The notes under the pieces were generated by a model. The model did not search any database, was not told where the DNA came from, and saw nothing but the letters and a program-made list of their open reading frames with translations. A stretch of DNA of 13,620 nucleotides from a virus (lineage: Duplodnaviria; Heunggongvirae; Uroviricota; Caudoviricetes). This document shows, in pieces, positions 1,851 to 13,393 of this stretch. The stretch lies in IMG/VR virus record IMGVR_UViG_2565956608_000003. One strand, given 5' to 3'. Every line of letters begins with the position of its first letter. The stretch's first letter is position 1. Both the position numbers and the translations under genes were made by a program.

Positions 1851-3607
1851 TGGCAAAAGTGGCTGACGGGATCCGCTACGCCGAACGTGTTGTTGCAGGA
1901 GAAATTGTTGCTGGCGAATTTGTCCGCCTGGCCTGCCAGCGTTTTCTTGATGATCTGAAGTACGGCGAAAAGCGGGGGATTTATTTCAGTGAACCCCGTG
2001 CGCAGCACATCCTGAATTTCTACAAATTTGTGCCTCATGTAAAAGGGGCACTGGCAGGCCAGCCCATTGAGTTGATGGACTGGCATGTATTTATCCTCAT
2101 TAATATTTTTGGTTTTGTCATTCCGCTGGTCAATGAAGAAACCGGGGAAGTTGTCATGCGCAGCGATGGCAGCGGACGTCCGGTGATGGTGCGCCGGTTC
2201 CGGACGGCGTACAACGAAGTCGCCCGTAAAAACGCAAAATCAACCCTGTCATCGGGTATCGGCCTGTATATGACGGGGGCAGATAGTGAAGGCGGAGCTG
2301 AGGTGTATTCAGCCGCAACCACGCGTGACCAGGCCAGAATCGTGTTTGAAGACGCCAAAAATATGGTCAGAAAAGCCCGGTCGACACTCGGGCGGTTGTT
2401 TGATTTCAACAAGCTGGCGATTTACCAGGAGCAGAGCGCATCAAAATTTGAACCGCTTTCCTCGGATGCAAACAACCTGGACGGTCTGAACATCCACTGC
2501 GCCATTATTGATGAGCTGCATGCACATAAAACCCGCGACGTGTGGGACGTTCTGGAGACGGCAACCGGTGCCCGTCTGCAGTCTCTGTTATTTGGCATCA
2601 CCACGGCTGGCTTTAACAAGGAAGGGATTTGTTACGAGCAGCGTGATTACGCCATCAAGGTATTGCGAGGCTATAACAGCGACGTGGAGGGCGCGGTAAA
2701 AGACGACTCCTACTTTGCGATCATTTACACGCTCGATGAGGGAGATGATCCGTTTGATGAAACGGTCTGGCAGAAAGCGAATCCTGGCCTGGGCATCTGT
2801 AAACGCTGGGATGATCTGCGTCGTCTGGCGAAAAAAGCGAAGGAGCAGGTCTCTGCGCGGGTGAATTTTTTTACCAAACACATGAATGTGTGGGTCACTG
2901 CCGAATCTGCCTGGATGGATATGATTAAGTGGGAGAAGTGCGAATACATTGCTCCACAACATGAGCTGAAAACATATCCCATGTGGGTCGGCGTCGACCT
3001 TGCTCATAAGATTGATATCTGTGCGGCGGCAAAACTCTGGCGAACCGATAACGGACATGTTCATGCTGATTTTAAATTCTGGCTTCCGGAAGGACGGCTG
3101 GAACGATGCTCGCGGCAGCAGGCAGAACTTTACCGGAAGTGGGCGGAGATGGATAAGCTCATCCTGACGGATGGTGATGTTATCGATCATGCTCAGATAA
3201 AAAGTGACTTACTGGAATGGATTGGCGGTGAAAACCTCAGGGAACTGGGATTTGACCCGTGGAGCGCAATGCAGTTCAGCCTGGCACTGGCTGAAGAAGG
3301 GATACCGCTGGTGGAGGTTCCGCAGACGGTCCGCAATCTGTCAGAGGCCATGAAGGAAACGGAATCACTGGTTTATGCCGGGCGTTTCCATCACAGCAAT
3401 CATCCGGTCATGAACTGGATGATGTCTAACGTTACTGTAAAACCGGACAAAAACGACAACATCTTCCCGAATAAATCCACGCCGGAAGCCAAAATCGACG
3501 GCCCTGTTGCGCTTTTTACAGCCATGAGCCGCTTTCTGGTAAATGGCGGGGGCGTGAATGACTTTCTGTCCACGCTTGATCCTGATGAGGACTTGTTAAT
3601 TCTGTGA
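1850..3607 (+). CDS. Terminase large subunit
   Basis: 585-aa ORF; Walker B-like HCAIIDELH; possible deviant Walker A around ARKNAKST; C-terminal nuclease-like region (WVGVDLAHKIDICAAA); position between small terminase and portal. Confidence 0.9.
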   Translation: MAKVADGIRYAERVVAGEIVAGEFVRLACQRFLDDLKYGEKRGIYFSEPRAQHILNFYKFVPHVKGALAGQPIELMDWHVFILINIFGFVIPLVNEETGEVVMRSDGSGRPVMVRRFRTAYNEVARKNAKSTLSSGIGLYMTGADSEGGAEVYSAATTRDQARIVFEDAKNMVRKARSTLGRLFDFNKLAIYQEQSASKFEPLSSDANNLDGLNIHCAIIDELHAHKTRDVWDVLETATGARLQSLLFGITTAGFNKEGICYEQRDYAIKVLRGYNSDVEGAVKDDSYFAIIYTLDEGDDPFDETVWQKANPGLGICKRWDDLRRLAKKAKEQVSARVNFFTKHMNVWVTAESAWMDMIKWEKCEYIAPQHELKTYPMWVGVDLAHKIDICAAAKLWRTDNGHVHADFKFWLPEGRLERCSRQQAELYRKWAEMDKLILTDGDVIDHAQIKSDLLEWIGGENLRELGFDPWSAMQFSLALAEEGIPLVEVPQTVRNLSEAMKETESLVYAGRFHHSNHPVMNWMMSNVTVKPDKNDNIFPNKSTPEAKIDGPVALFTAMSRFLVNGGGVNDFLSTLDPDEDLLIL

Positions 3608-3624
3608 AACAGCTTATTACTGAT

Positions 3625-3765
3625 ATGACCGGGCTGATCGGTTTCGGTTTGCTCACTGCTGGCGTTTATCTGTATGCAGGTCTGCCAGCGTCTCTGATGC
3701 TGTCGGGCTGTTTGTTGCTGCTTTATGCACTGGTGGTGTCCATGAGGAGAAAACATGCTTCTTGA
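3625..3765 (+). CDS. Putative small hydrophobic protein (46 aa from ATG 3625; in-frame GTG 3604 would give 53 aa), not in the supplied ORF track
   Basis: My translation: MTGLIGFGLLTAGVYLYAGLPASLMLSGCLLLLYALVVSMRRKHAS, two hydrophobic stretches and a basic C-terminus; fills the otherwise empty TerL-portal gap and overlaps the portal start by 11 nt; no strong SD seen. Confidence 0.35.
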   Translation: MTGLIGFGLLTAGVYLYAGLPASLMLSGCLLLLYALVVSMRRKHAS

Positions 3766-4981: not shown

Positions 4982-5573
4982 CCGTGAAACGCGCTGTTAC
5001 AGCGGGGAGGTGCGGGCGGAACAATATGATAATGCCCCGACCCACATTCTGGGCTATGGCTCGGTATTTAACAGTCGTTCAGAACCTCTGTGGGGATTTC
5101 GTGAAATCATCAAGCCGGGGGCTTTTGATGATGTACTGAATGATGATGTACGTGGCTTGTTTAATCATGATCCTAATTTCATTCTCGGACGAAGTTCTGC
5201 CGGCACGTTGTCATTGTCGGTGGATGAACGCGGTTTACGTTATGACATTGTTGCACCGGATACTCCGACTATTTGTGACCTGGTGCTGTCTCCAATGTTG
5301 CGTGGTGACATTAATCAGTCCTCGTTCGCGTTTCGTGTCGCCCGTGACGGAGAGAGCTGGTATGAAGACGACGAGGGGATTGTTATCCGGGAAATCACGC
5401 GCATTTCTCGTCTGTATGACGTCAGCCCGGTGACATATCCGGCCTATCAGGACGCAGACTCTGGTGTCCGCTCAATGAAAGCCTGGCAGGAAGCGCGGGC
5501 GAGTGGTGCGCTGAAGAAAGCTGTTAACGAACGAATGGCGCGTGAGCGTCTTTTGACCCTTCTTAATGCATAA
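4974..5573 (+). CDS. Prohead maturation protease (HK97 family)
   Basis: 199-aa ORF overlapping the portal stop by 8 nt (ATGAATGA); sits between portal and major capsid; GAGGA 4961-4965 upstream. Confidence 0.85.
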   Translation: MNDRETRCYSGEVRAEQYDNAPTHILGYGSVFNSRSEPLWGFREIIKPGAFDDVLNDDVRGLFNHDPNFILGRSSAGTLSLSVDERGLRYDIVAPDTPTICDLVLSPMLRGDINQSSFAFRVARDGESWYEDDEGIVIREITRISRLYDVSPVTYPAYQDADSGVRSMKAWQEARASGALKKAVNERMARERLLTLLNA

Positions 5574-5587
5574 GGATACTACTGACG

Positions 5588-6805
5588 ATGAAACTTCATG
5601 AGATGAAGCAAAAACGAAACACCATTGCAAAGGATATGCGTGCACTGCATGAAAAAATTGGTGATAACGCATGGACTGATGAGCAACGGGCAGAGTGGAA
5701 CAGGGCGAAAGCTGAGCTGGATGCGCTGGATGAGCAAATCGCCCGTGAAGAAGAGTTGCGCCGTCAGGATCAGGCATATGTGGATGAGTCCGGGCCGGAA
5801 GAGCGCCAGAATAATGAGGCGGAGAACGGGAAAAAGGCGGTGGAAGAGAAGCGCGCTGCGGCATTTAACCGTTTTCTGCGTGCCGGATTTGCAGAACTGA
5901 ATGCTGAAGAGCGTAATCTGATGCGTGAACTGCGGGCTCAGAGTGTAACAACGGATTCTCAGGGCGGATATACGGTGCCCACGCAGATGCGTAACAAAAT
6001 CATTGACACCATGAAGGCTTATGGCGGGATTGCCAGTGTGGCGCAACTTCTGACCACATCAACCGGGCAGGATATCACCTGGTCAACGTCTGATGGCACG
6101 ACTGAAGAGGGCGAACTGCTGGCGGAAAATACAGCCGCAACGGAACAGGATGTGACGTTCGGGACCGCTATTCTGGGGGCTAAAAAGCTGTCATCAAAAA
6201 TAATTCGTGTGTCCAATGAGCTGCTCCAGGACAGTGGGGTGGATATTGAATCTTATCTGGCAAACCGTATTGCCCAGCGTATTGGTCGTGGAGAGGCAAA
6301 ATATCTGGTTCAGGGGACCGGAACGGGATCACCGTTACAGCCAAAAGGGCTGGCAGCGTCGGTGACGGGAACCATCCAGACTGCAGCCTCTGCCGCTTTC
6401 ACCTGGAAAGAAATGAATGCCCTGAAACATGCCATTGATCCGGCATATCGTGGTGGGCCGAAATACCGCTGGGCATTCAATGATGCCACATTGCAGACTA
6501 TTGAAGAGATGGAGGATGGACAGAAACGCCCGTTATGGCTGCCGGATATTGCAGGCGGTACGCCGGCTACTGTGCTGGGGATCCCTTATGTTATTGATCA
6601 GGCTATTGACGGGATTGGTACCGGAAAAAAATTCATTTTCCTGGGGGATTTCAACCGCTTTATCATTCGCCGCGTTACTTATATGGAACTGAAACGTCTG
6701 GTTGAGCGTTATGCTGAGTTTGATCAGGTGGCATTTCTGGCTTTCCATCGTTTTGACTGTGTGCTGGAAGATGTGGCAGCCATCAAGGCGCTCACTGGCA
6801 AATAA
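5588..6805 (+). CDS. Major capsid protein (HK97 fold) with N-terminal scaffolding delta domain
   Basis: 405-aa ORF; the N-terminal ~100 aa are charged and coiled-coil-like (ELDALDEQIAREEELRRQDQ...), typical of a delta domain, followed by a capsid-like body; directly follows the protease. Confidence 0.9.
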   Translation: MKLHEMKQKRNTIAKDMRALHEKIGDNAWTDEQRAEWNRAKAELDALDEQIAREEELRRQDQAYVDESGPEERQNNEAENGKKAVEEKRAAAFNRFLRAGFAELNAEERNLMRELRAQSVTTDSQGGYTVPTQMRNKIIDTMKAYGGIASVAQLLTTSTGQDITWSTSDGTTEEGELLAENTAATEQDVTFGTAILGAKKLSSKIIRVSNELLQDSGVDIESYLANRIAQRIGRGEAKYLVQGTGTGSPLQPKGLAASVTGTIQTAASAAFTWKEMNALKHAIDPAYRGGPKYRWAFNDATLQTIEEMEDGQKRPLWLPDIAGGTPATVLGIPYVIDQAIDGIGTGKKFIFLGDFNRFIIRRVTYMELKRLVERYAEFDQVAFLAFHRFDCVLEDVAAIKALTGK

Positions 6806-6826
6806 CCACTCGTTGTTCAGTTACAG

Positions 6827-6848
6827 ACCGCGCCGACGCGGTTTTTTT
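6827..6848 (+). terminator. Rho-independent terminator-like hairpin after the capsid gene
   Basis: aCCGCG-ccga-CGCGGt stem-loop followed by T7 (6842-6848), 22 nt after the capsid stop. Confidence 0.55.
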
Positions 6849-6881
6849 ATGCCCGCACAGTGTTGCGGGCAGGAGTTTCTG

Positions 6882-7199
6882 ATGGCAGCAATAGTGGAAA
6901 AACTCAGGGCGCAGTGCCGTATTGATACAGATGATGCAACTGATGATGAGTTACTGATGCTGTATTTCCGGGCTGCCTGCCGCAAGGCAGAAAATTTTAT
7001 CAACCGTAAGCTTTATGAGGAGACGGTGCCAGAAGGTGATCCTGAAGGGGTGCTTATAGCTGATGATGTTTTGCTGGCGCTCATGTTGCTGGTCGGGCAC
7101 TGGTACGAAAACCGGGAAAATTCCTCAGATGTCAGCAAGGCACCAGTCCCGTTTGGTTTTTCTTCTCTTCTGGAGCCTTATCGTTTTATTCCTTTGTAG
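6882..7199 (+). CDS. Head-tail connector protein (HK97 gp6-like)
   Basis: Track ORF 6702..7199 begins inside the capsid gene and spans the terminator; the realistic start is ATG 6882 with AGGAG 6871-6875 six nt upstream; ~105 aa, first gene after the capsid as in HK97-type modules. Confidence 0.7.
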   Translation: MAAIVEKLRAQCRIDTDDATDDELLMLYFRAACRKAENFINRKLYEETVPEGDPEGVLIADDVLLALMLLVGHWYENRENSSDVSKAPVPFGFSSLLEPYRFIPL

Positions 7200-7207
7200 G
7201 AGGAGAC

Positions 7208-7546
7208 ATGCAGGCGGGCAGATTACGTGATCGCGTAATTATTCTGAATGTCACCACCGCCCGCTCTCCGTCAGGGCATCCGGTGGAGACGGTGACGGAG
7301 GGAGCTACCGTATGGGCAGAAGTTAAGGGTATCAGCGGGAGGGAGATAATCTCAGGCGGAGCAGAAACCGCTCAGGCTACGGTCAGAGTCTGGATGAGAT
7401 TCCGGCGCGATGTGACAGCGACTTCACGTCTGAAAGTGCTGACCGGTGCATTCAAAGGCGCGATTCTGGGTATAGAAGGTCCACCAATACCGGATGCACG
7501 CGCTACCCGGCTTGAAATGCTCTGCAGCCTGAAGGGAAATGTGTGA
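7208..7546 (+). CDS. Head-tail adaptor / head closure protein
   Basis: 112-aa ORF; AGGAGG immediately upstream of ATG 7208; assignment from size and synteny. Confidence 0.7.
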   Translation: MQAGRLRDRVIILNVTTARSPSGHPVETVTEGATVWAEVKGISGREIISGGAETAQATVRVWMRFRRDVTATSRLKVLTGAFKGAILGIEGPPIPDARATRLEMLCSLKGNV

Positions 7547-7992
7547 TGGATTTCAGTCTTGATTTTTCCGGCCTGGCGGATATTGCACGGGATTTGGAGG
7601 CGCTCAGCAGGGCAGAAAACAATAAGGTTCTGCGCGATGCCACCCGTGCCGGTGCTGAAGTTATGCGGGATGCAGTTGTTGAACGTGCGCCGGAGCGAAC
7701 CGGGAAACTGAAGAAAAATGTGGTTGTTCTCACTCAGCGTTCAAAGCGTCGGGGGGAAATTATCTCGGGTGTCCACATTCGCGGACGGAACCTGCGAACC
7801 GGAAACAGTGATAACAGCATGAAAGCCAGCGATCCCCGAAATGCATTTTACTGGCGCTTTGTGGAGCTGGGAACGATAAACATGCCCGCGCATCCATTCA
7901 TTCGTCCGGCTTTCGATACGACAGAGGAGCTGGCGGCGCAGGTTGCCATACAGCGAATGAATCAGGCTATTGATGAGGTCTTAAGTAAATGA
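7546..7992 (+). CDS. Tail component, HK97 gp10-like
   Basis: Track ORF starts at GTG 7543; ATG 7546 overlaps the upstream stop (TGATG); ~148 aa; assignment from size and synteny. Confidence 0.7.
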   Translation: MDFSLDFSGLADIARDLEALSRAENNKVLRDATRAGAEVMRDAVVERAPERTGKLKKNVVVLTQRSKRRGEIISGVHIRGRNLRTGNSDNSMKASDPRNAFYWRFVELGTINMPAHPFIRPAFDTTEELAAQVAIQRMNQAIDEVLSK

Positions 7993-8333
7993 GGGAGGGC
8001 ACACTGTATTCCCTGTTGTCTCAGCTGGCCGGAGGACAGGTTTATCCTTATGTGGTCCCGCTGACGGAGGGAAAGCCTGCGGTATCTCCGCCGTGGCTGG
8101 TGTTTTCTGTGGTGTCTGACACGGCATCTGATGTGCTTGATGGGCAGGCTGAATCCAGAATTACCGTGCAGATCGATGTCTGGGCGACAGTACCTGATGA
8201 CGCAGATAATATTCGTGAGCAGGCGCTTGATGCGGTAAGAAAACTGGCACCCTCCGTTATTTCTAAAACGCAGGGGTATGATCCTGACTCCCGTCTGAGC
8301 AGAGCCACGCTTGAATTTCAGGTAATAGCCTGA
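7989..8333 (+). CDS. Tail terminator / tail completion protein (lambda gpU analogue)
   Basis: 114-aa ORF overlapping the upstream gene by ATGA; immediately precedes the major tail gene. Confidence 0.6.
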   Translation: MREGTLYSLLSQLAGGQVYPYVVPLTEGKPAVSPPWLVFSVVSDTASDVLDGQAESRITVQIDVWATVPDDADNIREQALDAVRKLAPSVISKTQGYDPDSRLSRATLEFQVIA

Positions 8334-8352
8334 GGTCGTTAATGATTTACCC

Positions 8353-8375
8353 ACCCGCCGCTGGCGGGTTTTTTT
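8353..8375 (+). terminator. Rho-independent terminator-like hairpin upstream of the major tail gene
   Basis: aCCCGCC-gct-GGCGGG followed by T7 (8369-8375), then AGGAG and ATG 8393. Confidence 0.55.
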
Positions 8376-8392
8376 ATTTTCAGGAGACGAGT

Positions 8393-9097
8393 ATGTCCTC
8401 TAATTTTGAGCGTTCGCAACTGACGAAAATTATGATTTCGTCTGCACCGGTAACAGCAGAAACCCTGGATTCTGCCAGCTATCTTGGCCTGAGCTGTACA
8501 ATCAAAGAGGTGCAGTTTACCGCAGGACAAAAGCAGGATATTGATGTCACCACGCTGTGTTCTGTTGAGCAGGAAAATATTAACGGCCTTGGGGCTGCTT
8601 CAGAGATTTCCATGTCAGGCAACTTTTATCTGAATGCTGCCCAGAACGCGTTGCGCAGTGCCTATGACAATGACACCACGTATGGCTTTAAAGTTATTTT
8701 TCCGTCAGGCAACGGATTTACCTTTATGGCAGAGGTGCGTCAGCATACCTGGTCTGCAGGAACCAATGGTGTTGTGGCTGCAACGTTTTCCCTGCGTCTG
8801 AAAGGTAAACCTGTGCTGACGACAGAGCCGCTGAAAGTGAAGGTCGATTTAAAAAGCACGCTGCGGGTTTCTTCCGGAGCGAAACTTGAAATGGCGGTTG
8901 AGGCTGCGGGGGGTGTGCCGCCTTATTCTTATGCCTGGAAAAAAGGTGGTTCTCCTGTTTCCGGACAGACGGCGGCAACGTTCAGTAAGGCATCAGCAGC
9001 ATCCGGTGATGCCGGTGCGTATACCTGCGAGATTTCTGATTCAGCAAGCCCTGTTAACAAGGTGACCTCCACTTCCTGCACTGTAACCGTCAGTTAA
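8393..9097 (+). CDS. Major tail (tube) protein with C-terminal Ig-like domain
   Basis: Track ORF 8342..9097 reads through the hairpin; realistic start ATG 8393 (AGGAG 8382-8386, 6-nt spacer). C-terminal ~90 aa (PPYSYAWKKGGSPVSGQ...GAYTCEISDSA...CTVTVS) looks like an Ig-like module, as on lambda gpV. Confidence 0.8.
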   Translation: MSSNFERSQLTKIMISSAPVTAETLDSASYLGLSCTIKEVQFTAGQKQDIDVTTLCSVEQENINGLGAASEISMSGNFYLNAAQNALRSAYDNDTTYGFKVIFPSGNGFTFMAEVRQHTWSAGTNGVVAATFSLRLKGKPVLTTEPLKVKVDLKSTLRVSSGAKLEMAVEAAGGVPPYSYAWKKGGSPVSGQTAATFSKASAASGDAGAYTCEISDSASPVNKVTSTSCTVTVS

Positions 9098-9111
9098 TGA
9101 GGATGGATGTG

Positions 9112-9483
9112 ATGACTAAAAATATCCGTAATCTGGCACTGGCAACGATGTCGGGGTTTCGCCATAAAACCGTTGATGTGCCTGAATGGGAGGGAGCAAC
9201 GGTTGTGTTACGGGAACCTTCTGCAGAAGCCTGGTTGCGCTGGCAGGAGATCGTTAAAGCAAAAGATGATGAGACACCGTTATCCGTTGCGGAGCGCGCC
9301 CGCCGAAATCTGGAGGCAGATGTTGAACTGTTCATTGATGTTCTGTGTGATACCGGACTGCAACCCGTATTTTCAGAGGATGATCGTGAACAGGTGATTG
9401 CCGTGTATGGCCCGGTGCATGCGCGGCTTCTTCGGCAGTCTCTGGAACTGATCAGTGATGCCGGCGAGGTTAAAAAAAAGTAG
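9112..9483 (+). CDS. Tail assembly chaperone (lambda gpG analogue)
   Basis: ORF between major tail and tape measure genes; likely start ATG 9112 (GAGGA 9099-9103) rather than 9097; ends ...GEVKKK-TAG directly on an A-rich slippery site. Confidence 0.8.
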   Translation: MTKNIRNLALATMSGFRHKTVDVPEWEGATVVLREPSAEAWLRWQEIVKAKDDETPLSVAERARRNLEADVELFIDVLCDTGLQPVFSEDDREQVIAVYGPVHARLLRQSLELISDAGEVKKK

Positions 9484-9785
9484 CGCTTCCGGGGATGCGT
9501 TTTCTGATGATGCTGGCGCTCAGGATGGGGCGCACATTGTCAGAGTTACGCCGGGAAATGTCCGCATCAGAAATCATGATGTGGGCAGAATTTGACAGGT
9601 TCAGCCCGCTGGGTGACGAGCGGGCTGATATCCGGGCTGCCCAGATTGTTTCAGCTGTTTACGGTGCGCAGGGGGTCAAAGTGCCACTGAATGATGCGCT
9701 TCTTCAGTGGGAGCAGGAGCAGACAGAAGGCGTCTCAGATCCATTTGCCGGACTGGAAAACGCGCTTTTAATAGTGTCTCAGTGA
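9112..9785 (+). CDS. Tail assembly chaperone frameshift fusion (lambda gpGT analogue), by -1 slip at 9474-9480
   Basis: The -1 frame is closed by TAA at 9471-9473 and opens exactly at the heptamer A-AAA-AAG, then runs stop-free to 9785; ATG 9495 has no SD, arguing against independent initiation. Confidence 0.7.
9474..9480 (+). other. Slippery heptamer A-AAA-AAG (programmed -1 frameshift site)
   Basis: Read directly from the sequence; zero-frame stop TAG follows at 9481-9483. Confidence 0.7.
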
Positions 9786-9793
9786 GTCAACAT

Positions 9794-9815
9794 AACCGCT
9801 TCGGCGGTTTTTTTT
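9794..9815 (+). terminator. Rho-independent terminator-like hairpin between GT and the tape measure gene
   Basis: AACCGC-ttcg-GCGGTT stem with a UUCG-type tetraloop, followed by a T-run to 9815. Confidence 0.6.
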
Positions 9816-9825
9816 CGTCCGGAGA

Positions 9826-12800
9826 ATGAGTGTGGCGACATTACGTGAACTGATTATTAAAATCTCGGCAAATTCCCGGTCATTCCAGTCAGAGATCTCC
9901 CGGGCTTCGCGTATGGGGCAGGATTACTACCGTACCATGCAGAACGGAGGCCGACAGTCCGCTGCTGCATCCCGTGAAATGCGGCGTGCACTGGCAGAAG
10001 TGACGGATCAGATAAATACAGCTAAATCTTCGGCACTGAACATGGCGGGGGCATTTGCCGGGGCTTTTGCTACCGGTCATCTTATTTCTCTCGCCGATGA
10101 GTGGAATTCAGTAAATGCCCGTCTGAAGCAGGCCTCACAGTCCAGTGATGATTTTCAGTCATCACAGCGTGAATTAATGGCGATCAGCCAGAGAACGGGG
10201 ACGGCTTTTTCTGATAACGCCAGCCTTTTTGCCCGCTCTGCAGCTTCCATGCGGGAGTATGGTTACAGTTCTGAGGAGGTACTGAAAGTCACCGAGGCGA
10301 TCTCCACGGGCCTGAAATTATCCGGTGCCAGTACAGCAGAAGCCAGTTCGGTGATCACGCAGTTCAGTCAGGCTCTGGCGCAGGGAGTGCTGCGCGGTGA
10401 AGAGTTTAACTCGGTGAATGAGAACGGCGATCGTGTTATTCGTGCTCTGGCTGCGGGAATGGGAGTTGCCCGTAAGGATCTGAAGGCCATGGCGGATAAC
10501 GGAAAGTTGACCGCCGATAAGGTTGTTCCTGCACTGATTAGTCAGCTTGGGGCATTACGTGATGAATATGCGGCAATGCCTGATACGGTTTCATCCTCTG
10601 CAACCAAAGTTGAAAACGCCTTTATGGCCTGGGTTGGTGGTGCGAACGAGGCAAGCGGAGTGACGAAGACGCTCTCCGGTGTGCTGAATGGTATTGCAGG
10701 CAATATTGACACCGTGGCAACCGCTGCCGGTGCTCTGGTTGCCGTCGGGGTAGCCCGATATTTTGGCAATATGGCGTCGTCTGCTGGATCTGCAACTGCC
10801 GGATTAATTACTGCAGCCAGAAACGAAGTGGCTCTTGCTGAAGTGCAACTTCGGGGGACACAGATAGCAACCGCCAGGGCGCGTGCGGCGGTTTATCGTG
10901 CGCAACAGGCGGTTGTTGCTGCTCGCGGTACCGAAAGGCAGGCCGCAGCAGAAGCGAAGCTGACAGCTGCCCAGGTGTCACTTACCCGTAATATTGCGGC
11001 CAGAACAGCGGCACAGACAACGCTGAATAATGTTACGTCAGTGGGGAGTCGTTTATTAAGTGGCGCGCTGGGGCTGGTTGGTGGTGTGCCGGGACTCGTC
11101 ATGCTGGGGGCTGCGGCCTGGTACACGATGTATCAGAATCAGGAGCAGGCCAGAGAATCTGCACGCCAGTATGCCGCAACAATCGACGAAATTCGCCAGA
11201 AAACGTCGGCAATGTCGCTTCCTGAAGCGTCAGATAATGAGGAAAAGACGCGACAGGCACTGAAGGAGCAAAACAGGTTAATTGACGAGCAGAAAAGTAA
11301 GATTAAATCCTTACAGGAAAAAATTGCTGGCTATCAGTATGTGCTGGCAAACCCGGGCTGGACAACCGATAACGGTTTTATGATTAACCACATGACGTCG
11401 GTAAAAACTGTCACAGAAGGGCTTGCAGAAGCAACAAATCAACTGGCAGTTGAACAGTCTCGCCTCACTCAAATGCAGGGCAAAGCGCAATCCATTCAGG
11501 ATGTGCTTGCCGGGCTGGAGGAGCGACGGGTGGCGTTGATCCGTCAACAGGCAGCGGAACAAAACAAAGCGTATCAGTCCCTGTTGATCATGAATGGGCA
11601 GCATACCGAGTTTAATCGCCTTCTCGGGCTCGGTAATGAATTACTTCAGCAGCGACAGGGGCTGGTGAATGTACCGTTACGGCTACCACAGGCAACCCTG
11701 GATGATAAACAGCAGACCGCACTGAATAACAGCGAGCGCGAACTGGCTCTGTCCCGCCTGAAGGGGGAAGCTCGTGAGCGTGCCCGCCTGGGTTATGCTG
11801 CGGATGATCTCGGCTTTGTGGGAGAGGCGTATCAGACAGCAAGACTGAATTATATAAATAACTCACTGGATGCATGGCGAAATAACCAGGCAAATAAACC
11901 CAAAGCGCATAAAAAGACCGAAGCGGAAAAAACAGAGGATATTTATAAACGGCTGATTAAACAGCAAAAAGAACAGATAGCACTGGCAGGGCAGAATACT
12001 GAACTGGCTAAGATGAAATATCAGGTCAGTCAGGGCGAATTATCAACCCTGTCAGAAGCGCAGAAAAAAACGCTTTTGCAGAATGCAGCACTTATCGACC
12101 AGAAAAAGATTCGTGAGCAGCTTGCTGCGTATGAGAGCAGTCTGGCGGACAGTAATGCCAGTGTCAGAGCATCAAATGAGGCTCAGTTACTGGGATATGG
12201 TGAAGGCTCACGGATGCGTGAACGACTTCAGGAAATGTGGAGCATCCGGCAGGAGTTTGAGCAGAAAAATAACGAGCTACTGAGACAGTATCAGGCCGGA
12301 GAAATTGAAGAAGCCCTGTGGAAACAGGAGAAAGAGCTGAATAAAAAATATCTGGAAGAGCGTCTCAGCGATCAGCAGGATTATTATGCAAAGGCTGATG
12401 CTTTACGCAGTAACTGGAATGCCGGGCTCAAAGAGGGGCTGACGAACTGGGCAGACAGTGCCACCGATTATGCTTCGCAGGCGGCAGATGCTGTCGTTTC
12501 CACGATGGACGGGCTGGTATCAAATATTTCCGATGCACTGGCCGGGAATGTTGTGGACTGGAGGAACTGGGGGAGTTCAGTTCTCCGGGAAGTTTCAAAA
12601 ATTCTGATGAATGCAGCCATTGTTAACGGACTGAAATCACTCTCCGGTGCCGGAGGGTGGCTTGGTACGGTCGGCGGATGGATTTCGGGGGCAGTGGCAA
12701 ACGCAAAAGGTGGTGTTTACACATCGGCAAATCTGAGTGCGTACAGCAACAGCATTGTGGACACGCCCACGTACTTTGCGTTTGCAAAAGGGGCCGGGCT

Positions 12801-13059
12801 GATGGGGGAAGCCGGACCTGAAGCCATTATGCCCCTGACCCGGGCGGCGGATGGCTCGCTGGGCGTACGCGCGGTGGGCAGTATGAACGGCAGTGCCGGT
12901 CTGGTGTATTCCCCGGTCTACCACATCGCCATTCAGAATGACGGGGCTAACGGACAGATAGGGCCGGAGGCGGCAGGCAGTCTTGTGCAGCTGATTGACC
13001 AGCGGGTGCAGGCGGTGATGCTGTCCATGCGACGTGACGGAGGAATGCTGAGTGGCTGA
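9826..13059 (+). CDS. Tail tape measure protein (lambda gpH-like C-terminus)
   Basis: 1077-aa ORF after the chaperone pair; Gly/Ala-rich hydrophobic segments near the N-terminus and centre, long coiled-coil-like middle, C-terminus (HIAIQNDGANGQIGPEAAG...RRDGGMLSG) resembling recalled lambda gpH. Start could be ATG 9826 or in-frame GTG 9832 (better spaced from GGAG 9821-9824). Confidence 0.9.
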   Translation: MSVATLRELIIKISANSRSFQSEISRASRMGQDYYRTMQNGGRQSAAASREMRRALAEVTDQINTAKSSALNMAGAFAGAFATGHLISLADEWNSVNARLKQASQSSDDFQSSQRELMAISQRTGTAFSDNASLFARSAASMREYGYSSEEVLKVTEAISTGLKLSGASTAEASSVITQFSQALAQGVLRGEEFNSVNENGDRVIRALAAGMGVARKDLKAMADNGKLTADKVVPALISQLGALRDEYAAMPDTVSSSATKVENAFMAWVGGANEASGVTKTLSGVLNGIAGNIDTVATAAGALVAVGVARYFGNMASSAGSATAGLITAARNEVALAEVQLRGTQIATARARAAVYRAQQAVVAARGTERQAAAEAKLTAAQVSLTRNIAARTAAQTTLNNVTSVGSRLLSGALGLVGGVPGLVMLGAAAWYTMYQNQEQARESARQYAATIDEIRQKTSAMSLPEASDNEEKTRQALKEQNRLIDEQKSKIKSLQEKIAGYQYVLANPGWTTDNGFMINHMTSVKTVTEGLAEATNQLAVEQSRLTQMQGKAQSIQDVLAGLEERRVALIRQQAAEQNKAYQSLLIMNGQHTEFNRLLGLGNELLQQRQGLVNVPLRLPQATLDDKQQTALNNSERELALSRLKGEARERARLGYAADDLGFVGEAYQTARLNYINNSLDAWRNNQANKPKAHKKTEAEKTEDIYKRLIKQQKEQIALAGQNTELAKMKYQVSQGELSTLSEAQKKTLLQNAALIDQKKIREQLAAYESSLADSNASVRASNEAQLLGYGEGSRMRERLQEMWSIRQEFEQKNNELLRQYQAGEIEEALWKQEKELNKKYLEERLSDQQDYYAKADALRSNWNAGLKEGLTNWADSATDYASQAADAVVSTMDGLVSNISDALAGNVVDWRNWGSSVLREVSKILMNAAIVNGLKSLSGAGGWLGTVGGWISGAVANAKGGVYTSANLSAYSNSIVDTPTYFAFAKGAGLMGEAGPEAIMPLTRAADGSLGVRAVGSMNGSAGLVYSPVYHIAIQNDGANGQIGPEAAGSLVQLIDQRVQAVMLSMRRDGGMLSG

Positions 13060-13393
13060 GATAAAAACGCTGCATCTGGTCCCGCGTGAAGGGATGCAGG
13101 TGAGTGAGAAACCGTCGGTGGTGAGGGTTCGGTTTGGTGACGGTTATGAACAGCGCCGCCCCACAGGACTGAATCCTCAACTGAAGACGTTTCAGGCGGT
13201 GTTCCGGGTGACGGATGAGTCAACCCGGCGCTGGCTGGATGAATTTTTATCCTGGCATGGTGGTTACCGTGCCTTTTTGTGGCGACCGCCGAAACATAAC
13301 CGGACGGTGAGGGTGGTGTGTCGGGAGTGGAGCGTCACGGATAACGCCCGGTACAGTGATTTCAGCTGTACGATTGAGCAGGTGGTGAACTGA
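13052..13393 (+). CDS. M: Minor tail protein M (lambda gpM homologue)
   Basis: 113 aa; shares VRFGDGY.QR.P.GLN..LKT, GG..FLW.PP and the C-terminal EQVVN with recalled lambda gpM; overlaps the tape measure 3' end by 8 nt. Confidence 0.9.
   Translation: MAEIKTLHLVPREGMQVSEKPSVVRVRFGDGYEQRRPTGLNPQLKTFQAVFRVTDESTRRWLDEFLSWHGGYRAFLWRPPKHNRTVRVVCREWSVTDNARYSDFSCTIEQVVN

Follow-up and report, generated by a model that had tools for sequence, protein, structure and literature searches.

A conserved terminator-like hairpin precedes the major tail gene in the late operon of HK97-like Escherichia coli prophages

The late operons of lambdoid phages are turned on by Q antitermination (PMC2629481; PMC7547250), and the experimentally established terminator tR' of lambda lies directly after PR', where it yields a short RNA (PMC7547250). 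Terminators are also a component of morons, each of which consists of an inserted promoter, an ORF and a terminator (PMC3594210), and predicted stem-loop terminators delimit the late-gene clusters of the siphophage SPP1 (PMC6316719). The sRNAs of EHEC prophages map near PR' and not to the tail region (PMC4104026). The closest described counterpart of the element considered here is found in the record of HK97 (NC_002167), which carries a 'putative' terminator at 6692-6719 between gp11 and gp12; the same element is annotated as a 'rho-independent terminator' in HK633 (6695-6722) and mEpX1 (6645-6670). Further terminators are marked in all three records behind the capsid and tail genes and ahead of the tape-measure gene. 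RNA polymerase loaded with Q resists intrinsic terminators for tens of kilobases. A search of the accessible literature turned up no mapped transcript ends, reporter assays or in vitro termination assays for this element or its HK97 counterpart, nor any experiments on internal terminators in the late operons of HK97-like phages.

The DNA examined is a stretch of 13,620 nt from IMGVR_UViG_2565956608_000003, referred to in its full length as the window, and it represents the late (structural) operon of a temperate E. coli siphophage of the HK97-like prophage type. Phages Evi, vB_EcoS-733R4 and 640R1 are 96-98.5 % identical to the window, and the locus is present in ~17 % of complete E. coli genomes; E. 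coli SCU-116 (NZ_CP051719.1) carries this prophage, with the hairpin at about 3,668,341-3,668,357. Gene assignments made with Pfam give the capsid (5588-6805), a gp6-like connector (6882-7199), the head closure protein (7208-7546), an HK97-gp10-like protein (7543-7992) and the HK97 gp11-like tail completion or tail terminator protein (7989-8333 on the + strand, with its TGA stop at 8331-8333). The last of these matches PF11367 (Tail_completion_gp17, E 2.7e-11), and in the identical locus in RefSeq it is labelled 'tail completion protein gp17'. There follow the major tail (tail tube) protein of 234 amino acids (8393-9097, + strand), chaperone G (9112-9483), chaperone T (9495-9785) and the tape measure (from 9826/9832). 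In the tail tube protein, Pfam finds a C-terminal Ig-like domain (Ig_2/Ig_3) and weak matches to tail-tube families; PDB matches of the protein are limited to the Ig-like domain, and no structure of HK97 gp12 was found.

The tail completion and major tail genes are separated by an intergenic gap of 59 nt (8334-8392). Its first 19 nt (8334-8352) form a non-conserved spacer that contains a spurious ATG at 8342 and in which relatives cannot be aligned; among 30 loci, the 20 nt located 5' of the stem contain 7 % G versus 26 % in the adjoining coding DNA. The spacer is followed on the + strand by the hairpin ACCCGCC-GCT-GGCGGGT, with arms at 8353-8359 and 8363-8369, a loop of 3 nt at 8360-8362 and a predicted dG of about -12 kcal/mol. 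Six of its seven pairs are GC and make up the core stem CCCGCC/GGCGGG (8354-8359/8363-8368). Directly abutting the stem is a T-tract (8369-8380, a U-tract on the RNA) composed of T7 (8369-8375), an A and T4 (8377-8380). The Shine-Dalgarno sequence AGGAG (8382-8386) lies 6 nt 5' of the ATG at 8393, with GGAG occupying the same place in relatives, and the distance from stem to ATG is 23 nt. The sequence thus confirms the first-pass annotation in its description of a terminator-like hairpin and a run of seven Ts between the tail-terminator and major tail genes, with the SD and ATG immediately after them.

A hairpin of this quality is rare by chance. A consensus scan ranked 8353-8369 as the top terminator-like site of the window. 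Strict criteria called for a perfect stem of at least 6 bp with at least 5 GC pairs, a loop of 3-8 nt and no fewer than 6 T among the 8 nt that follow. By these criteria the + strand of the window has two sites (6827-6842 and 8354-8368), and the - strand has none. Among 500 dinucleotide-preserving shuffles, the mean was 0.016 strict sites per strand and only 1.4 % of the shuffles contained any, making sites of such strength ~60-fold rarer in shuffled sequence. Weaker terminator-like sites are uninformative, because a generic scan of the window finds 18 of them against 13.6 expected. Taken in its entirety, the 76-nt region shows no unusually stable fold (z = -1.4), and a search of the whole window against Rfam at E <= 1 produced no family match at the hairpin. 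The signal is the local hairpin with its T-run and not a larger structure. One larger structure, sequestration of the Shine-Dalgarno sequence, was considered on account of the minimum free energy fold of the window, in which the SD region is base-paired to CCUGAG from the gp11 stop. This pairing is not conserved; the probability that the SD pairs with sequence 5' of the hairpin averages 0.21 over 30 loci and is 0.02 in the window, and the reading was rejected because of this inconsistency.

The mechanically called ORF 8342..9097 does run through the hairpin, as its translation confirms, and this adds MIYPPAAGGFFYFQETS. The idea that the region is coding, with the tail protein beginning at 8342 and the hairpin a chance feature of its CDS, can draw on the presence of GAGG 5 nt upstream of ATG 8342, on the shared frame of 8342 and 8393, and on the long form annotated in the GenBank records of Evi and 606R7. 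Against it, HK97 gp12 and other homologues align over their full length, at 72-78 % identity, to the product that starts at 8393, and all begin at the equivalent position; MS(A/S).. opens the protein at the corresponding ATG in HK97 gp12, BP-4795, FSL SP-016, a Klebsiella phage and Aeromonas AsXd-1. The RefSeq/PGAP CDS in the identical E. coli locus starts exactly at the equivalent of 8393, and the short form was likewise chosen by the curators of the HK97-family records (HK97, HK633, mEpX1). Of the 31 related loci, 14 leave no possibility of an upstream extension. The closest clade has three homopolymer alleles, and the hairpin is intact in each of them: T3/T7 in the window, where the 8342 extension is in frame; T4/T6 in Evi and 606R7, where it is also in frame and the peptide is frame-shifted (MILPTRRWRV.. 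versus MIYPPAAGGF..); and T4/T7 in phi467 and 569R6, where the extension is out of frame. Because homologue starts, RefSeq and frame-breaking indels all agree, the extension is non-coding, and a coding origin of the hairpin has a negligible probability. The correction of the start to 8393 proposed in the first-pass annotation therefore holds, and these comparisons place the true start of the major tail gene there. The GenBank records of Evi, 606R7 and BP-4795 over-call the tail-tube ORF by at least 17 codons, so that the present result corrects a recurrent annotation error.

Comparison with HK97 indicates that the hairpin of the window is the orthologue of the putative gp11|gp12 terminator. 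In HK97, HK633 and mEpX1, as in the window, the element lies at the junction of the tail-completion and major tail genes and on the identical strand, with a CCCGCC...GGCGGG stem, a T-run, AGGAG and an ATG ~20 nt further on. The blastn alignment to HK633 and mEpX1 starts at query position 154, corresponding to window position 8353, and a covariance model (R1) built from the loci described below, which was also used for their structure-aware alignment, matches the window with an E of 7e-14 and HK97 with an E of 8e-17. The flanking proteins of the two phages have diverged to different degrees, with 72 % identity in the tail-tube protein (80 % in its N-domain) and 50 % in gp11. The HK97 element differs in its loop (AGAT versus GCT in the window) and in a stem lengthened by A-U pairs. 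HK97 also has an extra terminator right after the tail gene (7443-7462), whereas the corresponding gap in the window is only 14 nt (9098-9111) and contains no terminator.

The conservation of the element extends well beyond HK97. Loci were gathered from 10 phages and from 25 prophages in species-representative genomes, and 31 distinct loci were analyzed; the genera sampled include Serratia, Symbiopectobacterium, Pectobacterium, Leclercia, Klebsiella, Raoultella, Kosakonia, Enterobacter, Superficieibacter, Brenneria, Providencia and others. All 31, from Escherichia to Providencia and Aeromonas, have a GC hairpin that runs directly into a T-run a short distance 5' of the tail-gene ATG, and HK022 carries the hairpin even though its flanking genes have no nucleotide similarity to the window. 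Across these loci the stem is 5-9 bp long, the loop is 3-6 nt, the predicted dG ranges from -6.3 to -15.5 kcal/mol and the distance from stem end to ATG is 18-26 nt. The 8 nt following the stem contain at least 5 T in every locus (mean 6.5), and the T columns vary little or not at all in alignments of relatives.

The stem has been maintained while its sequence changed. The 31 loci contain 25 distinct stem-loop sequences, and in the structure-aware alignment 93.9 % of cells are paired, versus 37-53 % when the 3' partner is slid. Changes on both sides occur at 4 of 6 pairs and amount to 15 compensatory cells, examples being a C-G pair at the base of the stem that is A-U in Klebsiella and a G-C pair that is A-U in Providencia. 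The covariation score was reached by none of 500 shuffles, although these statistics are inflated by the relatedness of the loci and by an alignment that was fitted to the structure. The existence of 25 different stem-loop sequences with compensatory changes indicates that the structure is under selection. More specifically, the hairpin combines the attributes of an intrinsic terminator, namely a GC stem-loop, an abutting U-tract, a position on the transcribed strand in non-coding DNA and compensatory changes, and it is very probable that it represents a selected RNA element of the terminator type.

The hairpin also coincides with a boundary of sequence conservation. Distant blastn matches in ~140 phage records, among them Stx phages, HK633, mEpX1, Klebsiella phages and Aeromonas AsXd-1, begin at query positions 154-156 (window 8353-8355), where the hairpin itself starts; the sequence 5' of it is not conserved among relatives. 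A mosaic joint at this point was considered and set aside; gp11 is a faster-evolving homologue (50-56 % amino acid identity versus 74-84 % for the tail-tube N-domain), and the hairpin marks a conservation boundary and not necessarily a site of recombination.

The first-pass annotation had offered three explanations for the placement of a terminator upstream of this gene, and these differ greatly in how well they fit. An overlapping promoter, by which the terminator would end the head transcript and a new tail transcript would start at the same place, is unsupported. Apart from its position, the only thing in its favor is a weak TTTTAT (8372-8377) that is readable as a -10. A scan of the window found no promoter-like site here, and there is no sigma-70 pair of -35/-10 hexamers with a spacing of 16-18 that would yield a leader including the SD; with a -10 at 8372-8377, transcription would begin within the SD or beyond it. 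The -35 that it requires (8349-8354, ACCCAC) is poor and falls in sequence that is not conserved among relatives, and the stem and ATG are only 23 nt apart. A promoter is thus highly improbable. Read-through under late antitermination fits best of the three explanations, since all terminator features are kept over the 31 loci and a Q gene lies upstream on the same strand in Evi. Along a single strand, this phage has Q (PF03589 Antiterm, E 7e-51) followed by S, R and Rz and then by the terminase, head and tail genes; the Q context is taken from Evi, which is 96-98 % identical, and the window itself ends short of Q and the late promoter. The description of the placement as counterintuitive does not stand, because the element is conserved and already annotated in HK97 and is therefore expected for this phage type.

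Under the reading preferred here, the hairpin is most likely an ordinary terminator that would be overridden by the phage's own Q during lytic growth. Behind unmodified RNA polymerase, the nascent RNA would fold into the GC hairpin of 6-7 bp, and the polymerase would release at the U-tract, at approximately 8370-8380. The polymerases stopped in this way would be those originating from spurious or moron promoters, together with leaky transcription in the lysogen. Polymerase would be loaded with Q at the late promoter, which lies beyond the window at a distance of several kb upstream, and the Q-loaded polymerase, unable to form terminator hairpins, would read through. The tail tube would then be translated from its own strong, uncoupled SD and ATG 13-24 nt further on, and the U-rich, hairpin-flanked leader would be a by-product that may also suit efficient independent translation initiation. 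The outcome would be a locking of tail-gene expression to Q, because unmodified polymerase stops and Q-modified polymerase bypasses the site. This full mechanism, an intrinsic terminator in a Q-dependent late operon that is overridden by Q and ties tail expression to it, is judged to be somewhat better than an even proposition. If Q read-through is nearly complete, the element would be silent in lytic growth, and its very strong conservation would need a benefit in the lysogen or from insulation.

The pre-tail hairpin is accompanied by sister elements in the same operons. In the window, a hairpin and T-run at 6825-6844 on the + strand follow the capsid gene (stop 6805) and correspond to an HK97 putative terminator at the same junction (5192-5213). 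A second sister on the + strand, AACCGC-TTCG-GCGGTT with a T-run (9794-9809), lies between chaperone T (stop 9785) and the tape-measure gene and corresponds to the HK97 putative terminator at 8398-8422. Model R1 matches this junction in the window over its full length (9785-9828, E 6.6e-8) and in most of the other loci. When ~5.7 kb surrounding the tail gene was scanned in each of the 31 loci, 93 terminator-like sites lay on the coding strand and 27 on the opposite strand. The site before the tail gene is unidirectional and was found by the scan in 30 of 31 loci, the 31st being visible by eye and to the model; the site before the tape-measure gene is present in ~27 of 31 and is often bidirectional; and the site that follows the capsid gene, with the tail gene as reference at about -1470 to -1840, is present in ~17 of 31. 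By this count, the pre-tail element is the best conserved internal terminator in these operons.

The presence of at least three terminators at conserved boundaries (capsid|connector, completion|tube and chaperone|tape measure) is what might be expected of leaky attenuators, at each of which a fraction of Q-modified polymerases would terminate to give a gradient of head > neck > tail > tip for timing or stoichiometry. However, stoichiometry would call for the reverse of a drop in transcript level ahead of the second most abundant virion protein, and Q-modified polymerase is highly terminator-resistant over long distances. Attenuation under Q is therefore considered improbable.

The sister elements also bear on the possibility that the hairpin is an aid to translation, insulating the tail-tube RBS from upstream structure while the U-rich tract serves as an S1-binding or standby site. 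The rationale would be a need for very high, uncoupled translation of a protein of ~200 copies that follows one of 6 copies. Compatible with this are the tight spacing of stem and ATG in all 31 loci, the U-rich tract that is always just 5' of the SD, and the isolation by a gap of the tail gene from upstream genes that are translationally coupled through ATGA-type overlaps at 7543/7546 and 7989/7992. Tight spacing, however, is expected anyway in compact phage genomes, and predicted SD accessibility is not notably high (mean P(paired) 0.72). The same hairpin, T-run, SD and ATG arrangement precedes the low-copy tape-measure gene, which argues for a generic layout of a terminator in a gap. Conversely, no leader of this kind precedes the high-copy capsid gene, where the protease ORF ends at 5573 and the capsid ORF starts at 5588, and lambda V, separated from U by a gap of 7 nt without a terminator, has no hairpin. 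A device for high expression is accordingly disfavored, and a role in translation carries little probability. The Sakai prophage Sp15 also has a lambda-type U|V junction without the hairpin. Because both lambda and Sp15 lack it, the element is a trait of the HK97-type tail module and not a requirement of Q control.

The remaining explanation offered in the first-pass annotation, a stability or processing site, is doubtful although it has several points in its favor. Once an endonuclease had cut the long late transcript, the hairpin might shield the 3' end of the upstream head and neck mRNA against 3'-5' exonucleases; if the cut fell in the AU-rich tract, it might mark the 5' boundary of a discrete tail mRNA. 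Together with 9794-9809, it would bracket a stable MTP-G-T segment of ~1.45 kb. Segments of polycistronic operons, including papBA, do differ in stability. In the window, the MTP-G-T block is bounded exactly by the hairpins at 8353-8369 and 9794-9809, in HK97 those at 6692-6719 and 7443-7462 enclose the tail-tube gene alone, and the post-capsid hairpin at 6825-6844 is consistent with 3' protection of the mRNA of an abundant protein. The U/A-rich single-stranded tract after the stem resembles the sequence preferred by RNase E. On the other hand, a 3'-protective hairpin at this position would stabilize the mRNAs of low-copy neck genes and not that of the tail tube, and a stem of 6-7 bp is too short for RNase III, which needs ~20 bp or more of dsRNA. 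Moreover, a protective or 5' hairpin needs no abutting U-tract, yet this tract is found in 31 of 31 loci. Termination is favored over a plain stability hairpin because the invariant U-tract directly abuts the stem. The two functions could also be combined, with a Q-gated terminator which, when read through, becomes the 5' boundary of a discrete and unusually stable tail-tube/chaperone mRNA segment (8353-8369 to 9794-9809 in the window; 6692-6719 to 7443-7462 in HK97), so that tail-tube abundance would be set post-transcriptionally. Such a dual purpose is quite unlikely; if true, it would mean that the tail-tube level is set by segmental mRNA stability, like that of the major pilin in pap operons. 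A further, speculative benefit would be a complete shut-off of the tail-tube protein in lysogens by the terminator.

With the Q-overridden terminator as the preferred reading, the significance of the locus lies in the preservation of the HK97-type gp11|gp12 terminator across Enterobacterales and Aeromonas with compensatory changes. Such conservation in an element presumed to be silent under Q is mildly puzzling. The locus thus provides a cheap test case for the role of internal terminators in antiterminated phage operons, whether in lysogen insulation, mRNA segment stability or attenuation.

Among known systems, lambda tR' resembles the putative terminator of the window in being an intrinsic terminator within a Q-controlled late unit, expected to stop unmodified polymerase and to pass Q-modified polymerase; the element of the window differs in lying many kb inside the operon, between structural genes. 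The terminators of the HK97 and HK022 morons, such as the one after gene 15, likewise consist of a hairpin and T-run just 5' of the SD of the next late gene, and model R1 also matches two moron-associated terminators of HK97 (8389-8437 and 13791-13836). The window, unlike a moron, has only a 19-nt spacer between stop codon and hairpin, with no ORF or promoter of its own between the flanking genes, and the element is found in all relatives and not sporadically; identity as a moron was for these reasons rejected. SPP1 shares terminator-like hairpins in the gaps of its structural operon, one of them adjoining the tail tube gene (PMC6316719). Unlike that of the window, this terminator follows the tail tube gene (11,255-11,304, with the 17.1* stop at 11,279), and the gap before the gene (10,470 to 10,484) contains none (PMC6316719). 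The late control of SPP1 is, in addition, not of the Q type. The intercistronic stabilizer hairpins of papBA and the malEFG REP give rise to differential stability of mRNA segments. They offer a possible functional analogy, in that hairpins bracket the cistron or cistrons of the most abundant subunit in a polycistronic message; they have no conserved U-tract after the hairpin, however, and are defined by mapped processing events. Thus, the element before the major tail gene is an ordinary one of a known kind and canonical for this phage type, with a presumed function in termination; the same element has been annotated in HK97 for years.

Among 5,426 complete E. coli genomes, 899 carry the tail-junction locus (window 8250-8550), mostly at 95-100 % identity, with up to four copies per genome and every copy chromosomal; as a prophage tail module it is very common. 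Across 30 loci, comprising window 8334-8352 and its equivalents among the collected phage and prophage loci L001-L034, the spacer of about 20 nt that runs from the stop of the gp11-like tail completion gene to the hairpin ahead of the tail-tube gene is strongly depleted in G and rich in C and A (A.37, C.34, G.07, T.23); in the adjoining coding DNA the G fraction is.26. Of these spacers, that of the window departs most from the typical composition. Such a G-depleted spacer may avoid competitors for folding of the hairpin; alternatively, the C/A-rich stretch may act as a separate element with a role of its own.

The tail-tube open reading frame is drawn too long, across the terminator, in the GenBank records of Evi (listed coordinates 6443-7198), BP-4795 (2910-3755) and 606R7 (443-999), and in BP-4795 the over-long frame shares 70 nt with the upstream gene. 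The record of 569R6 (listed coordinates 90-539) carries a run of N inside the gp11-like gene, and its 'tail completion protein' call is over-long and overlaps the tail-tube coding sequence.

Hairpins also lie at other gene junctions of the window. Two stand in tandem at 6825-6875, between the capsid stop (6805) and the connector ATG (6882, also the RefSeq start): the first is a terminator-like AGACCGCG-CCGA-CGCGGTTT followed by a T-run, and the second, GCCCGCA-CAGTGT-TGCGGGC (6851-6870), adjoins at its 3' end the Shine-Dalgarno sequence AGGAG (6871-6875). Both are read through by the automatically called frame 6702..7199, which begins at TTG. Between the T chaperone and tape-measure genes lies AACCGC-TTCG-GCGGTT, with a UUCG tetraloop and T8 (within 9794-9834), a hairpin that in relatives is often bidirectional, with a 5' A-run and a 3' T-run. 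The listed tape-measure start, ATG 9826, is spaced just 1 nt from GGAG (9821-9824) and is probably two codons too far upstream, because RefSeq takes the in-frame GTG at 9832. Farther downstream, within frame 13052..13393 of the minor tail protein region, lies a fairly strong terminator-like hairpin, GGCATGGT-GGTT-ACCGTGCC followed by TTTTT (13254-13273), which may be a chance feature.

An A8 run (GTTAAAAAAAAGTAG, within 9472-9483) lies directly 5' of the G chaperone stop, with the T frame (9495-9785) next, and looks like the slippery site for the -1 G/GT frameshift that is conserved in the tail chaperones of siphophages. The tail-tube protein carries a C-terminal Ig-like domain (residues ~140-234, window 8810-9097) as an in-frame fusion, common to the tail-tube proteins of the window, HK97, BP-4795 and a Klebsiella phage. 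FSL SP-016, AsXd-1 and about 12 prophage loci lack it, and their proteins measure about 147 aa; the Ig-like domain is gained or lost inside a single tail-tube family.
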